The notes: generated from the letters alone by a model not told the origin. A stretch of 64,000 nt of DNA from an uncultured bacterium (GCA_963847225.1 CAWJYZ010000002.1:269007-333006), one strand, 5' to 3'; shown: positions 46,281-64,000, counted from the stretch's first letter. Translations and numbers: made by a program.

Positions 46281-46353
46281 GGGGACGTAGCTCAGCTGGG
46301 AGAGCGCTTGCATGGCATGCAAGAGGTCGGGAGTTCGAGCCTCCCCGTCTCCA
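46281..46353 (+). tRNA. tRNA-Ala (anticodon GGC)
   Basis: Full cloverleaf GGGGACGTAGCTCAGCTGGGAGAGCGCTTGCATGGCATGCAAGAGGTCGGGAGTTCGAGCCTCCCCGTCTCCA. It has the G3:U70 alanine identity pair and anticodon loop AT-GGC-AT. No CCA is encoded. Confidence 0.9.
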
Positions 46354-46891
46354 CTTCGCTGGTGTTGCTGGGATTTCCCGTGGCACGGTTCGTGCCGGAT
46401 CGCCTCTTACCGGGCCTGGCCGGCGTCAGTTAAGCGCTCTCTTGCAGAGCCCCTCCGGAAGCAAGCTCGGAGGATCTTCGGTGGCCCTGGTGCGATTTGG
46501 CCCGTCTCTTCGCCGCCTGCTGGAGGTCATCGCGCCAAACCCCCCAACGCACGCCGTCGCGTGGCCGGCGGCCGCCGGCCTCCAGCGGAACCTCGAATAC
46601 CATTGATATCACTGCGCATTCGGGATTCCCGATCCTTCGCTCCGACGGTCGGCTCCCCGACGGCTTCCCAGCTCCCGCCCAAGGGGCTCCTGATCGCAGC
46701 AGTCAAGCGCGCTTGAAGGGACGCCCCAAGAGGACGACGAGATCAAGCCAGCTCACACGCTGCCCAGGATCCTTCTCAGGCAACGGTGATCCGAGCGATG
46801 AGCGAGCGCACCGGCCACGTATACAGGTACAGGCGAGTCTGCATAGTTGCACGAAACCGTCGCGATACGGCGCGTGGTCAAAGAGCGAACC

Positions 46892-47140
46892 TCAGCCACG
46901 AGACGGGCAGTCACTGACATGTCTGACCCGGAGGTCGCGAGCCTTCCCACCACGGGAGATGCGGAGAATCAGCTCGTCCCCGATCTCATGCTGGCGAATC
47001 GCCTTCTGGACGTCCGGGAAGTCTGTAATGGGCTTACCGTCCACCTCGATGAGGCGGTCCCCGCCGAGAACACCGCCCTCAGCAAGCTGACTGCCGCGCC
47101 GGGGAAGCGAGATCGCCAATCCAAGCTCGCCGTCTGCCGC
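46892..47140 (-). pseudogene. C-terminal PDZ-domain remnant of an HtrA/DegP-like protease
   Basis: PDZ-like sequence GGVLGGDRLIEVDGKPITDFPDVQKAIRQHEIGDELILRISRGGKARDLRV. No protease domain lies upstream. A second copy is at 52668-52930. Confidence 0.4.
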
Positions 47141-47144
47141 AGGT

Positions 47145-60724: not shown

Positions 60725-61483
60725 TTACCCGTCGGTGAGATGGTGCTCAAGCGCGTACCGCACTGCCCCCGTGCGTGACCTGACGCCCGCCTTGATGAAG
60801 ATGTTGTGGACGTGCTGATCCGCTGTCCGCGGCCCGATGCCAAGCTCGCGCGCGATCGCTCGATTCGTCAGGCCGCGAGCCATCAGATGCAGGACCTCCA
60901 TCTCCCGGGGGGTGAACGGCATCACCAGCGGAGCCCGAGGTGCCCCGAGCGACAGGGTGACGTCACCGCCCAGCCCGTCCGGTATGACGGTGGCACCGTA
61001 GTAGACACTTCGAATAGCCGCCAGCAGCGCTTGACCGTGAGCGGACTTCAGCATGTAGCCGGAGGCACCCGCGAGGAAGGCTTCCCGTGCGCACTCGGGA
61101 TGTGCGGTCAGTATCAACACCCGTAGCGTCGTGTACGTCGCTCGCAGCCGCCTCGTGGCATCGATGCCGCCCATTCCTGGCATTCGAGCCTCCATGACGA
61201 CGATATCGACCTGTCGCTGGGCGACGAACGCGAGGGCTTGCTCCGCGCCCTCGGCCTCGCCGAGTACAAGCATGTCCGGGCAGCCCTGAAGCAAAGCCCG
61301 GATCCCTTGTCGCATGAGTGGGTGAGCATCGGCGATCAGGACGCGGATGACCGGAGCCGTCTGGACGGCTGCATCCTCACCTCCTGGAGCGGGGTCTCGT
61401 CGAAGGCCATCTGCCGACTTCGGGGCCACCGGGGTCCAGCCCGCCGGCTCGGACGAGCCCATGTACGTAGTGGAGTCGAGCAT
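60725..61483 (-). CDS. NarL/FixJ-family response regulator (REC plus LuxR helix-turn-helix)
   Basis: ATG at 61483 with a GGAGAC RBS. REC motifs RVLIADAH and VDIVVMEARMPGMGGID. LuxR HTH REMEVLHLMARGLTNRAIARELGIGPRTADQHVHNIFIK. The rest of ORF 60725-62914 is antisense to the next gene. Confidence 0.8.
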   Translation of the reverse strand: MLDSTTYMGSSEPAGWTPVAPKSADGLRRDPAPGGEDAAVQTAPVIRVLIADAHPLMRQGIRALLQGCPDMLVLGEAEGAEQALAFVAQRQVDIVVMEARMPGMGGIDATRRLRATYTTLRVLILTAHPECAREAFLAGASGYMLKSAHGQALLAAIRSVYYGATVIPDGLGGDVTLSLGAPRAPLVMPFTPREMEVLHLMARGLTNRAIARELGIGPRTADQHVHNIFIKAGVRSRTGAVRYALEHHLTDG

Positions 61484-61612
61484 CCGAATACGTCTCCAGG
61501 ATCTTACGTACAAGTCAAACGCTGAAATGCCGGGCCGACTAGAGACTTTCGGCCCTTGTTGAACGGGCCGACCGCCCCCACCGTATAGCCATCCCGTGCC
61601 GGGGAGACAGCC

Positions 61613-63558
61613 ATGCCGTACAGATTCGAGTTCAACCGCTCCGAGTGCCTCAACTGCGGCGTCTGCATGGACGTCTGCCCAGTTCAGGCACTCGACATGA
61701 CGCGGACCACGACCCCATCGATCGAATCCGGTATCCGAGCAACGGCGCTGCGCGAGCAGCCCTGGATGATGGAGTTCCCCATCCAGGCGAAAGAGTGCAT
61801 CGGATGCGAGCTCTGCTCGACCGAGTGTCCGACCGGCTGCATCGAGGTCAGGGCGGTCCCGGGCACGGTCGAGCTGGTGGCGCCGCAGGGACCCACGTAT
61901 CGCGACCCTGGGCCGGTCACAACCTGGGCGCCGCTGGCCCCATACACGATGGAGTCCCTGAAGGAGGTGCACTCCGACCCCTGGGGGAAGCTCGCCCACT
62001 GGCAGGCGGCTAAGCGCGAGGGTGCCTGGCAGGTGTGGCGCAGTTGGGGCGGCGATGGCGAAGGTTCTGGGACGAGTGCTCTCGTCGCGCCGTGCCAGGA
62101 GGCCTGCCCCGTCGGCACCAACGCCGGCTTGTATGTCGCCCTGGTTGGTGAGGGCCGCTATGCGGAAGCCTTCGCCGTGGCCGCCGAGTTCAATCCGTTC
62201 CCCTCGGTCTGCGGCCGTGTGTGCACCGCGCCTTGCGAGATCGCCTGCCGGCGCGCTGTTGTCGATGAGCCGATTGCGATCCGCGAGTTGAAGCGCTTTG
62301 CCGCTGATTACGGGGGGTCCGGCTACCCGGCGGCGCCGCCTCCGGAGCAGCGCAGGTCCGAACGAGTGGCGATCGTCGGGGCAGGTCCAGGCGGCCTCGG
62401 GGCCGCCTACCTTCTGGCGCGAGCCGGCTACTCGGTGACGATCTTCGAGGCGATGCCCGTTGCCGGCGGCATGATGGCGATCGGCATTCCCGAGTACCGC
62501 CTGCCGAAGCGCGTCCTCCAGGCCGAGATCGATCGGATTCTCGGGCTGGGGGTCGAGCTTCGCGTCAATTCGGCGTTGGGCCGGGACTTCACGCTGGACG
62601 GTCTGCGGCGCGACGGCTACGACGCGATCCTCATCGCAACGGGTGCTCCGATGAGCCAGCCCCTGCGGGTTGCGGGCGAGGAGTTGCACGGAGTCTGGCC
62701 GGCAACCGTCTTTCTCAAGCGCGTGAACCTCGGCGAGAAGGTCAAGTTGGGCGGTGACGCGCTGGTCGTGGGCGGCGGGTCCACAGCGATGGATGCCGCG
62801 CGCTCCGCCTGGCGGGCCGGGGCCGGCACAGTGCGGGTGCTCTACCGGCGCACCCGCGAGGATATGCCGGCGCAGGAAGAGGAGCTCCGGGCCGCAGAGC
62901 TCGAGGGGGTCCACATCGATGAGTTGCTCGCTCCATCGAGATCCTCGGCCGGCAGGGGCGGATGACGCACGTCCGGTGCCAGCGGATGGCTGTGACCGGG
63001 AGAGATGAGAACGGGCGCAGCACCATCATTCCCGTTCCAGGCAGTGCCTTTGACATTCCCGCACGGACGCTCCTGATTGCGATCGGCGAGGCGCCCGATC
63101 CGTCTATCCTACCCGAGGGCTCCAGCATCGAGGTCGCGCAGTGGGGCGGTCTGCTCACCGACTCCGAGACGCTGATGACGGCTCAGCCTGGCGTCTTCGC
63201 GGCAGGCGATGTGGCAACCGGACCCAAGAGCATCATCGAAGGTGTGGCCCAGGGGCAGCGCGTCGCGTGGGCGATCGACCGCTATCTGCGCGGGTTGCCC
63301 ATGGATCACTACACACCGCCTTGGCGATACCGGCCTGCGCGCTTCGCGACCGATAGGATGGTCATCGACCTCAGCAACCGCCAACGGGCGATCATCCCGC
63401 TGGCCACGCGGGACCAGGTCGAACGCGTGGACCTCTACCAAGAGGTGTCGATCGGCTTTGGCGAGCCAGACGCTCAGCGTGAGGCGCAGCGTTGCCTGCA
63501 CTGCGATGTCATCGCATCTTGCCAAGTGGTCAACGTGATAAGGGAGGTGACCGCATGA
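61613..63558 (+). pseudogene. GltD/PreT/SudA-like NAD(P)H-dependent Fe-S flavoprotein oxidoreductase with an N-terminal 2x[4Fe-4S] ferredoxin domain, split by a frameshift
   Basis: Motifs CLNCGVCMDVCP, CIGCELCSTECP, CQEACPVGTNAG..CGRVCTAPCEIAC, VAIVGAGPGGLGAAYLLA and GVFAAGD. Frame 2 ends at 62965. The family-conserved SIEILGRQGRMTHVRCQRM continues in frame 1 from about 62925. Confidence 0.55.
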
Positions 63559-64000
63559 CACCTGATCAGCTCAGCCAATCGATCATCAACGCATTTCAGA
63601 ACGGAGGTGAGGGCTTCCTCGAGGGGACCATGGCAGCGGCGCTTCCGCTCCTCTGGCTCCTTGCGCTGGCACTGCATCTCGCGCGCCCATACATGTTGCG
63701 CACTACTCAGAAGTTCTCACTGCGTTTGGGGGCCGACATTTGGTGGGTGCTATACATTGGGCTCCGAGACATCGTCATGGTCCTCGTGGCCGTCCTGAGC
63801 TTCATGTATCTGTACCCGGACGTGGTCGTCAACGATGCGCTACCGATCAGCGGCTCGCTCGCCACAGTTGCCATCTTTGCCGCCCTCCTAGTGAAGCTGG
63901 TGGCAGACACCGACGACGATCCCCGCGCATTCAAACTCCTGTCCACACTTCTGGGTGCCGGCAGCGCGCTCTACATCGTTCCCACGGTGGTAGGAGTGCA
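63555..64000 (+). CDS. Integral membrane protein paralog A, copy 2 (3' end runs off the window), with a 25-aa N-terminal extension
   Basis: ATG at 63555 after a GGAGGTGA, giving an ATGA overlap with the upstream stop. From 63559 the DNA is near-identical to 49161 onward. Confidence 0.5.
   Translation, partial: MTPDQLSQSIINAFQNGGEGFLEGTMAAALPLLWLLALALHLARPYMLRTTQKFSLRLGADIWWVLYIGLRDIVMVLVAVLSFMYLYPDVVVNDALPISGSLATVAIFAALLVKLVADTDDDPRAFKLLSTLLGAGSALYIVPTVVGV

Follow-up and report, generated by a model that had tools for sequence, protein, structure and literature searches.

Sublocations within tRNA genes, including an anticodon-loop class, were reportedly distinguished by Williams in 2002. Among the islands collected in Islander, all of which are defined with an integrase of their own, anticodon-loop class A is the commonest (2083 of 3919), and arrays of at least three islands are rare, with 4 cases in which every member carries an integrase (PMC4383910). 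Cis-mobilizable elements (CIMEs) are defined, in the account relayed by PMC5704250 (Pavlovic 2004, Bellanger 2011), for relatives of the integrative and conjugative elements (ICEs) ICESt1 and ICESt3 of Streptococcus thermophilus, and tandem accretion, decay to cis-mobilizable elements and the transfer of composites are all documented (PMC5704250). The ssrA islands of Dehalococcoides target the T loop of the tmRNA gene, with a 20-bp repeat and the serine recombinase DsiB; 15 islands without an integration module are suggested to be cis-mobilizable, and no duplicates occur within any strain (PMC3146451). The locus described here lies in a 64,000-nucleotide (nt) stretch of DNA from an uncultured bacterium (GCA_963847225.1 CAWJYZ010000002.1:269007-333006), the whole of which is called the window, and consists of a tRNA-Ala(GGC) gene and the array of islets behind it. 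The islets are probably decayed units of the cis-mobilizable type that accreted at this tRNA gene, with a composite of two islets, A and B, present twice in an array of ~20 kb. This is a known process of genome growth at a tRNA, here in a little-studied uncultured phylum, and it reveals no new process. Dormibacterota, to our knowledge, is a phylum known only from metagenomes.

The single tRNA gene that ARAGORN finds in the 64-kb window, tRNA-Ala(GGC), is followed by three partial copies of its 3' portion, located by repeat search, alignment and self-BLAST (Table 1). An earlier note, drawn from the sequence alone, described one intact gene with three 3' copies, each bearing a conserved downstream flank, in the order tRNA / X-Y / T' / Z / T / X-[IS]-Y / T' / IS-W / Z, where IS stands for insertion sequence. 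The gene, which ends at 46354, and its copies are borne out by ARAGORN, alignment and self-BLAST, the flank measures 83-108 nt, and self-BLAST confirms the order. The duplicated blocks are 46299-47173 and 52075-52948 (98.7% identical), 47166-49161 and 56565-58559 (99.0%), and 49161-49600 and 63561-64000 (99.8%). Two distinct islets, A of ~2.7 kb and B of 3-8 kb, alternate as A-B-A'-B' after the tRNA in head-to-tail copies, and the middle junction is made up of the B leader, a tRNA fragment and the A arm, that is, a right end fused to a left end. Measured to the terminal fragment seen in L001, a contig described below, the array is ~20.2 kb long. The GC content, which drops at the tRNA, is 64% in islets A and B versus 71-72% across the 46 kb upstream, a difference that points to a foreign origin of the islets; the upstream part is an ordinary chromosomal region with PPDK, citrate synthase, hut genes, glycogen genes, G6PD and holA.

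The partial copies begin at tRNA position 19/20 and lie in direct orientation, and in the alignments their identity with the tRNA runs without a break from position 32 in the anticodon loop (ATGGCAT) through the 3' end, as in islands of the anticodon-loop class. To the left of this identity block, the 5 bases are specific to the element and read CTTGC in the tRNA and TTTCA, TTCA or CCTCA in the fragments. Both T' fragments share a 1-nt deletion (G39). In the T stem, the A-U pair of the intact tRNA (46332/46342) is replaced by a compensatory G-C pair in the fragments (52107/52117, 49056/49066 and 58454/58464), and both alleles are native in relatives, A-U in L007/L008 and G-C in L006, L021 and L009. 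The intact tRNA has no encoded CCA, its 3' end reading GTCTCCA-C-TTCG; its 5' part is chromosomal and its 3' part is supplied by the element. The G3:U70 pair is legible in its sequence, and a functional-looking tRNA, as expected of a regenerated gene, thus stands at the proximal end of the array.

The fragments are framed by conserved arms. The downstream flank follows the intact tRNA and each partial copy in the window, and an upstream leader of 118 nt precedes every internal fragment. The leader had been reported for two copies at ~150 nt; it stands at the shorter measured length, and the copy at 58423, previously unchecked, carries it as well. A 27-mer of the flank occurs 4 times and a 24-mer of the leader 3 times, each against 0.00 expected in shuffles. 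The A-type and B-type downstream flanks are 85% identical, and the two leader types are 72% identical globally and 81% in a local BLAST that includes the fragment. Leader- or arm-like signature sequences are CGCCCTCSTCCCATTTACTTCCCA and CTTCGYTGGTRTTGC..TTTCCCG, and copies of a motif, RAAGCAAGYGC, stand in both arms as well as in the L006 arm. Three junction types are present: the tRNA with a downstream arm only, the internal fragments with both arms, and the terminal fragment in L001 with an upstream arm only. These correspond to left (attL), attP-like and right (attR) attachment sites, as tandem site-specific integration predicts, and sites of the attL and attR types delimit the islets, as in CIMEs and tandem accretions. 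Since the A and B arms are 72-85% alike yet their cargo is unrelated, at least two related elements appear to have integrated independently.

The right end of the array is visible in L001, a contig from a different sample (ENA ERZ25039538) with 99.56% identity to window 54225-64000. It holds a complete second B, 99.8% identical to 49161-52129, and, ~2.5 kb past the window end, a fourth tRNA 3' copy in which the B leader is present and the downstream arm absent. This terminal fragment ends GTCTCCACCA, after which comes unrelated DNA with thioredoxin-like, YgaP-like and GroES genes. It carries CCA, then CCAGGG..CCGTTGAGAT..TTTCCGG, which has its homolog in the flank that follows the undisturbed tRNA of the outgroups L007 and L009. 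The corresponding locus of relatives (holA, a 181-aa gene, tRNA-Ala(GGC)) was reached through the holA protein, and these relatives are named Candidatus Dormibacteria in their sources. The tRNA gene of L007/L008 and of L009-L016 includes CCA and runs into CCAGGG..CCGTTGAGA(T), continuing in L007 to ..TTTCCGG; the empty native site is the tRNA with CCA followed by CCAGGGCCCAGAAACCCGTTGAGAT. With its CCA end and native-type flank, the terminal piece of L001 is the original 3' end of the tRNA gene.

In L006 and L021, which represent two sister species with 74-76% identity in holA, an arm of the same type follows a tRNA-Ala(GGC) that likewise encodes no CCA. The L021 arm is 85% identical to the B arm over ~83 nt, compared with ~68% in the adjoining chromosomal DNA, and the match of the L006 arm comprises its first 31-40 nt plus the GAAGCAAGCGC motif. 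The tRNA is therefore occupied by this element family in at least three species. The proposal that the T/T' unit marks island boundaries in relatives finds its support at these two loci; scans with exact patterns were negative. The downstream-arm 27-mer has zero exact occurrences in the genome and metagenome collections, the latter evidently without the arm-carrying Joint Genome Institute (JGI) contigs L006 and L021. The fragment signature TCAATGGCAT(N)CAAGAGGTCGGG has no match in an exact scan of the genome and viral collections, the tRNA-end/arm junction has none in the metagenome and viral collections, and the leader has none in the viral collection. BLAST of the att unit and of the whole A+B unit gives no plasmid or phage match except a chance tRNA-like one. 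Two short-read contigs of sister species, L019 (1-37) and L022 (1-30), end inside tRNA-Ala(GGC) at positions 37 and 30, and L002 spans exactly the interval between the two sites at which the B copies differ (49189 and 51324). These contig ends suggest repeat- or variant-induced assembly breaks at the locus in other samples too.

No tyrosine or serine recombinase domain is found by Pfam in any sizeable open reading frame (ORF) of the whole window, in agreement with the earlier note. The small ORFs of the unassigned stretches contain no integrase remnant (Pfam), and tblastn of the window with the integrase of the Dormibacteria contig L014 and its neighbors gives nothing below E = 0.03. By the same searches, the islets hold no integration, excision or transfer genes, as is characteristic of CIMEs, and none has the integrase of its own that islands of the anticodon-loop class possess. 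An extension of the integrase search beyond the window had also been proposed; the visible flank, reached through L001 for 2.3 kb past the array, has none. A separate element is present in some strains of a more distant Dormibacteria species: L013 (1-4103) and L014 (1-4071) have, directly after tRNA-Ala(CGC) and 1.4 kb from tRNA-Ala(GGC), small ORFs and genes for a Phage_integrase of 351 aa and a DUF2637 protein. The site is empty in L009-L012 and L015, and the element supplies a CCA end to a native gene that is without CCA. Its strain polymorphism indicates that such elements are active in the phylum. The flank and integrase of this element are unrelated to anything in the window (tblastn, flank comparison).

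In the proposed mechanism, an incoming circle would carry an attP of ~260-280 bp, composed of the ~118-nt upstream arm, the tRNA portion from the anticodon loop to the 3' end, and the ~85-108-nt downstream arm. With conserved arms as long as ~100 nt to either side, the recombinase may be a tyrosine integrase that uses arm-type sites. Crossover in or beside the anticodon loop would let the element's copy rebuild the tRNA and would shift the former 3' part downstream. In this way a pair of islets, related yet distinct, would come to be neighbors, A with the PDZ and VapBC genes, and B with a response regulator, a GltD-like protein, two membrane proteins and an AbrB-PIN pair. The G39 deletion common to both T' fragments suggests that the composite A-T'-B was copied as a unit. 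The earlier claim of sequential insertion into one tRNA with an anticodon-loop crossover accordingly agrees with the attL/attP-like/attR pattern, though not in the form of four independent insertions. A B-type attP with the G39 deletion would damage the tRNA at each integration, so a deletion that arose in the displaced fragment is simpler. Most likely, the composite was excised and re-integrated, or re-acquired from a related donor, through its outer sites by an integrase from elsewhere; the A-U pair of the tRNA against the G-C pair of the middle fragment fits an incoming composite with a different allele. The decayed islets may have been moved in trans or been amplified through their att sites. 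Later events would comprise the entry of the intron-carrying IS1380 into A' and of a second IS into B', the loss of 5 kb from B, and gene decay, and the terminal toxin-antitoxin (TA) pairs probably aid the retention of the islets.

Several observations weigh against accretion by a site-specific recombinase. The right end of the array rests on L001, which comes from another sample and not from the window's own contig. The recombinase is hypothetical: no integrase is found in the window, in the 2.3-kb right flank of L001, in the 9 kb downstream of the L006 tRNA or in L021, nor is there an integrase-bearing relative with matching arms in collections that hold few relatives, the source genome being seen as the window alone. 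Exact-pattern scans of the genome, metagenome and viral collections yield no further copies of the arms. A role of the motif RAAGCAAGYGC in protein binding is no more than suggestive, since few of its copies are independent. The two copies of A (47166-49161 vs 56565-58559) differ by 13 substitutions in 1996 positions, and those of B (49161-52129 vs L001 9338-12307) by 4 in 2970, a roughly fivefold gap (Fisher p = 0.005). Had the composite been duplicated once, no such gap would be expected, and gene conversion or different donors are needed to account for it.

The same gap bears on an unequal homologous exchange in which the tRNA of one sister chromosome pairs with the terminal fragment of the other. 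Such an exchange could have produced the second A-B copy after tRNA-A-T'-B-T had formed. It would also give a head-to-tail product whose middle junction is exactly the B leader joined to the A arm, the G-C pair that the middle fragment shares with the terminal one in its T stem is in keeping with an exchange in the last ~12 nt, and no integrase, of which none is present, would be needed. It predicts equal ages, yet the A and B copies are unequally diverged; the shared homology is only ~55 nt with two mismatches within it; and the 5 nt by the anticodon loop differ between the middle and the terminal fragment, in a leader that is otherwise identical. Re-integration of the composite gives an identical map, and it is favored by the A-U pair of the tRNA against the G-C of the fragment, by the differing loop-adjacent bases and by the short homology of ~55 nt available to RecA, and unequal exchange is unlikely. 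An artificial join of two strain haplotypes of one A-B composite, with and without the IS and W, through the tRNA piece is very improbable. The window does come from a metagenome-derived 664-kb contig (P0001 and P0155 map there), its indels relative to L001 in several genes make error-prone long reads likely, the copies differ as strain variants do, and a chimeric join in the tRNA piece would mimic the middle junction. The ~55-nt stretch shared at the join is, however, far too short for a long-read overlap. The parent contig of L001, as its record coordinates imply, begins at ~window 52104, at the edge of the repeated block and not in the tRNA 5' half or holA. L002, from a third data set, breaks exactly at the two B-copy difference sites, and both B variants therefore co-occur in that data set.

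The units of leader, fragment and arm could instead be functional, non-mobile features, such as regulatory RNAs, promoters of the TA genes or tRNA-like decoys for the PIN proteins. VapC toxins cut tRNAs in the anticodon loop, and the units sit immediately upstream of antitoxin genes (48852, 51892). The same type of unit stands before two unrelated antitoxin families, its folding is not stronger than that of shuffled sequence (z = +0.2 and +0.3), neither promoter-like nor terminator-like sites are found, and Rfam gives only weak, sub-threshold tRNA-like matches, so that a regulatory or decoy role is unsupported; the attL/attR asymmetry and the native CCA end would in addition be left unexplained, and this explanation is extremely unlikely. 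It is quite improbable that the islets are integrase-free, TA-stabilized 'att cassettes' with a complete attP-like site of ~270 bp, moved, stacked and amplified wholly in trans by a recombinase with its gene elsewhere, and resident at tRNA-Ala(GGC) in several Dormibacteria species. Were it so, such cassettes would form a cassette-array platform at a tRNA gene and not the wreck of once-autonomous elements. Accretion of decayed islets, with the composite re-integrated through its outer sites, is the reading followed below.

Table 1. Coordinates of the tRNA-Ala(GGC) array, its att-like arms and the genes of its islets in the window
Feature	Position	Strand	Evidence and remarks
Intact tRNA-Ala(GGC), attL core	46281-46354	+	ARAGORN; Rfam tRNA model 62.5 bits; 74/74 nt identity to the native tRNA of L007/L008
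Downstream arm (P'-type), A version, copy 1	46355-46470	+	Hairpin GGCACGGTTCGTGCC, motif GAAGCAAGCTC at 46458-46468; alignments, motif search
Islet A, copy 1	46355-49024	.	2.7 kb, 64% GC; self-BLAST
PDZ-domain protein gene	46892-47762	-	Pfam PDZ_2; +1 frameshift at ~47161; homologs 270 aa (P0002, P0010 full length)
VapC (PIN) toxin, islet A	48122-48589	-	Pfam PIN; NCBIfam TIGR00028 126 bits (cut-off 73.6)
Ribbon-helix-helix VapB-type antitoxin, islet A	48586-48852	-	Pfam FitA-like_RHH E = 8e-4, below gathering score; operon position, overlaps VapC start
Upstream arm (P-type leader), A version	48907-49024	+	ACTTCCCAG twice; GCAAxCGC / GAAGCAAGTGC repeats
tRNA 3' fragment T' no. 1	49025-49078	+	tRNA positions 20-74, G39 missing; left core TTTCA, not CTTGC; alignments
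Downstream arm, B version, copy 1	49079-49161	+	Truncated at 49161 by the 5-kb deletion
Islet B, copy 1	49079-52074	.	3.0 kb; without IS, response regulator and GltD-like gene; self-BLAST, L003 synteny
Two paralogous membrane proteins	TM1 49230-49805, TM2 49824-50474	+	43% identical
MFS transporter C-terminal remnant	50781-51155	+	Pfam MFS_1 22.8 bits, below cut-off; profile positions 78-179 of 347
PIN (VapC-like) toxin, islet B	51234-51600	-	Pfam PIN; full-length frame; start CTG overlapping antitoxin stop (CTGA)
AbrB/MazE-type antitoxin, islet B	51596-51892	-	Pfam MazE_antitoxin 30.5 bits; NCBIfam AbrB domain
Upstream arm (P-type leader), B version	51958-52074	+	100% identical to terminal-fragment leader in L001
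tRNA 3' fragment T, middle junction	52075-52129	+	Left core TTCA, T stem G-C; alignments
Islet A, copy 2	52130-58422	.	Gene content as copy 1, IS interrupting at TTAA
IS1380-family IS	52947-56565	+	Transposase 54920-56350; terminal repeats CCCCGATCATTCA; 4-bp TTAA target duplication; NCBIfam IS1380 304 bits
Group II intron inside the IS1380 element	~53050-54940	-	Reverse transcriptase/maturase 53148-54500, NCBIfam group II reverse transcriptase 375 bits; Rfam
Upstream arm, A version, copy 2	58305-58422	+	98.3% identical to copy 1
tRNA 3' fragment T' no. 2	58423-58476	+	G39 deletion as in T' no. 1; alignments
Downstream arm, B version, full length (108 nt)	58477-58586	+	A-arm resemblance resumes from 58560 (TCTCTTGCAGAGCCC)
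Islet B, copy 2	58477-64000	.	Continues in L001 for ~2.5 kb beyond window end to terminal leader and CCA-ending fragment
Second IS	58587-60662	+	17-nt terminal repeats TAGCGCCGATTCTCGCG; helix-turn-helix and DDE transposase, frameshifted in window vs L001
NarL/GerE-type response regulator, cargo	60725-61483	-	L001 gene table; NCBIfam; syntenic in L003
GltD-like Fe-S/FAD oxidoreductase	61613-63558	+	648 aa in L001; interrupted near 62963 in window; 75% nucleotide identity to L003

Each islet is closed by a toxin-antitoxin pair. The earlier note had placed an addiction module in each block, and Pfam and NCBIfam identify VapBC in A and, in B, an AbrB-type antitoxin with a full-length PIN protein that starts at CTG. 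The islet-B toxin has no ATG, GTG or TTG start (window 51596-51600), and the CTG codon suggests that the toxin is attenuated or silenced. Of the gene remnants previously listed, the tail of an MFS transporter holds, and the PDZ 'stub' is the C-terminus of a single gene of ~270 aa, frameshifted or split by an IS. Because the homologs are 270 aa long, the supposed stub and the neighboring 205-aa ORF are one gene, which bears a +1 frameshift in copy 1 and is split by the IS at TTAA in copy 2. Members of this PDZ family (window 46892-47762 and 56290-57161) are ~270 aa long; their PDZ domain is C-terminal, the motif CxCICPMCSIGxCGC is conserved, and their N-terminal ~180 aa match no family. The interrupting IS is the '[IS]' of the layout given above, an IS1380 element with a group II intron nested in it. 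Domains 5/6 of the intron lie at 53055-53138 and D1-D4 at 54700-54937 (Rfam), just upstream of the IS1380 transposase gene.

The second composite symbol of that layout, 'IS-W', holds as to the IS; W is ancestral cargo and not an insertion. In L003, a 240-kb contig of a relative (64.5% GC), the response regulator, the GltD-like gene, TM1 and TM2 are contiguous and in the same order, in ordinary chromosomal surroundings where the nearest 10 kb contain no tRNA. From this gene order, the response regulator and GltD-like gene are original cargo, and B copy 1 has lost 5 kb (equivalent to 58560-63560); the contiguity of the two W genes with TM1/TM2 rules out W as an insertion into B'. The four genes form a conserved block (window 60725-64000 and 49230-50474; L003 6538-10651). 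TM1 and TM2 match no Pfam or NCBIfam family, and membrane proteins of this type have 438 homologs in Dormibacteria/Chloroflexota metagenomes. A derivation of the MFS remnant from the MFS gene near the syntenic block of L003 has no support, tblastn giving no match. Relative to L001, single-base indels or a stop at window 59230, 62963, 57681, 56690 and 56910 disrupt the transposase of the second IS, the GltD-like gene and the second VapC copy, and represent either long-read errors or real decay. Far from the array, a HipA_C-domain kinase gene of toxin type lies at window 94-1095.

The locus gives a precisely mapped case of gene gain at a tRNA hotspot in Dormibacterota, with defined att arms and a defined native end. 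Datable decay events are the arrival of two ISs and of a nested group II intron, the deletion of 5 kb and the loss of a toxin start codon. Because an integrase of its own is missing, the array would be overlooked by island finders that require one. In soil metagenomes, the att arms could serve as probes for circular intermediates and for the recombinase that is missing here.

Among the systems compared, the tRNA-Ala(CGC) element of L013/L014 is found in the same phylum, at a neighboring tRNA-Ala gene and right after the tRNA 3' end, and is strain-polymorphic. It differs in having its own Phage_integrase and DUF2637 genes, in a flank dissimilar to the arms described here, and in an integrase of which the window bears no trace. 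The ssrA islands of Dehalococcoides, whose host phylum belongs to the same broad neighborhood (Chloroflexota), resemble the array in the multiple tandem islands downstream of a small-RNA gene, in the 3'-end direct repeats and in conservation that extends beyond the repeat. Here, in contrast, the site is a tRNA anticodon loop, the repeat of ~55 nt is accompanied by long arms, no recombinase is present, and islands are duplicated. Islander class A shares the marking of the far end by a 3' tRNA fragment, the identity from the anticodon loop to the 3' end, and the tRNA rebuilt from the element, whereas in the present array an integrase is found in none of the four units. Compared with CIMEs, the target is a tRNA gene, and not the 3' end of a protein gene as in the relatives of ICESt1/ICESt3 covered by the account cited above; no functional ICE or integrative and mobilizable element (IME) stands as a partner in or beside the array, the composite itself occurs twice, the host is a member of the Dormibacteria, and mobility is putative. 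The likeness to CIMEs lies in the attL- and attR-type sites at the islet borders, in the loss of the genes for integration and transfer, in the tandem arrangement with related elements, in internal sites that are chimeric for the arms of two elements, and in composites that would be movable as a unit.

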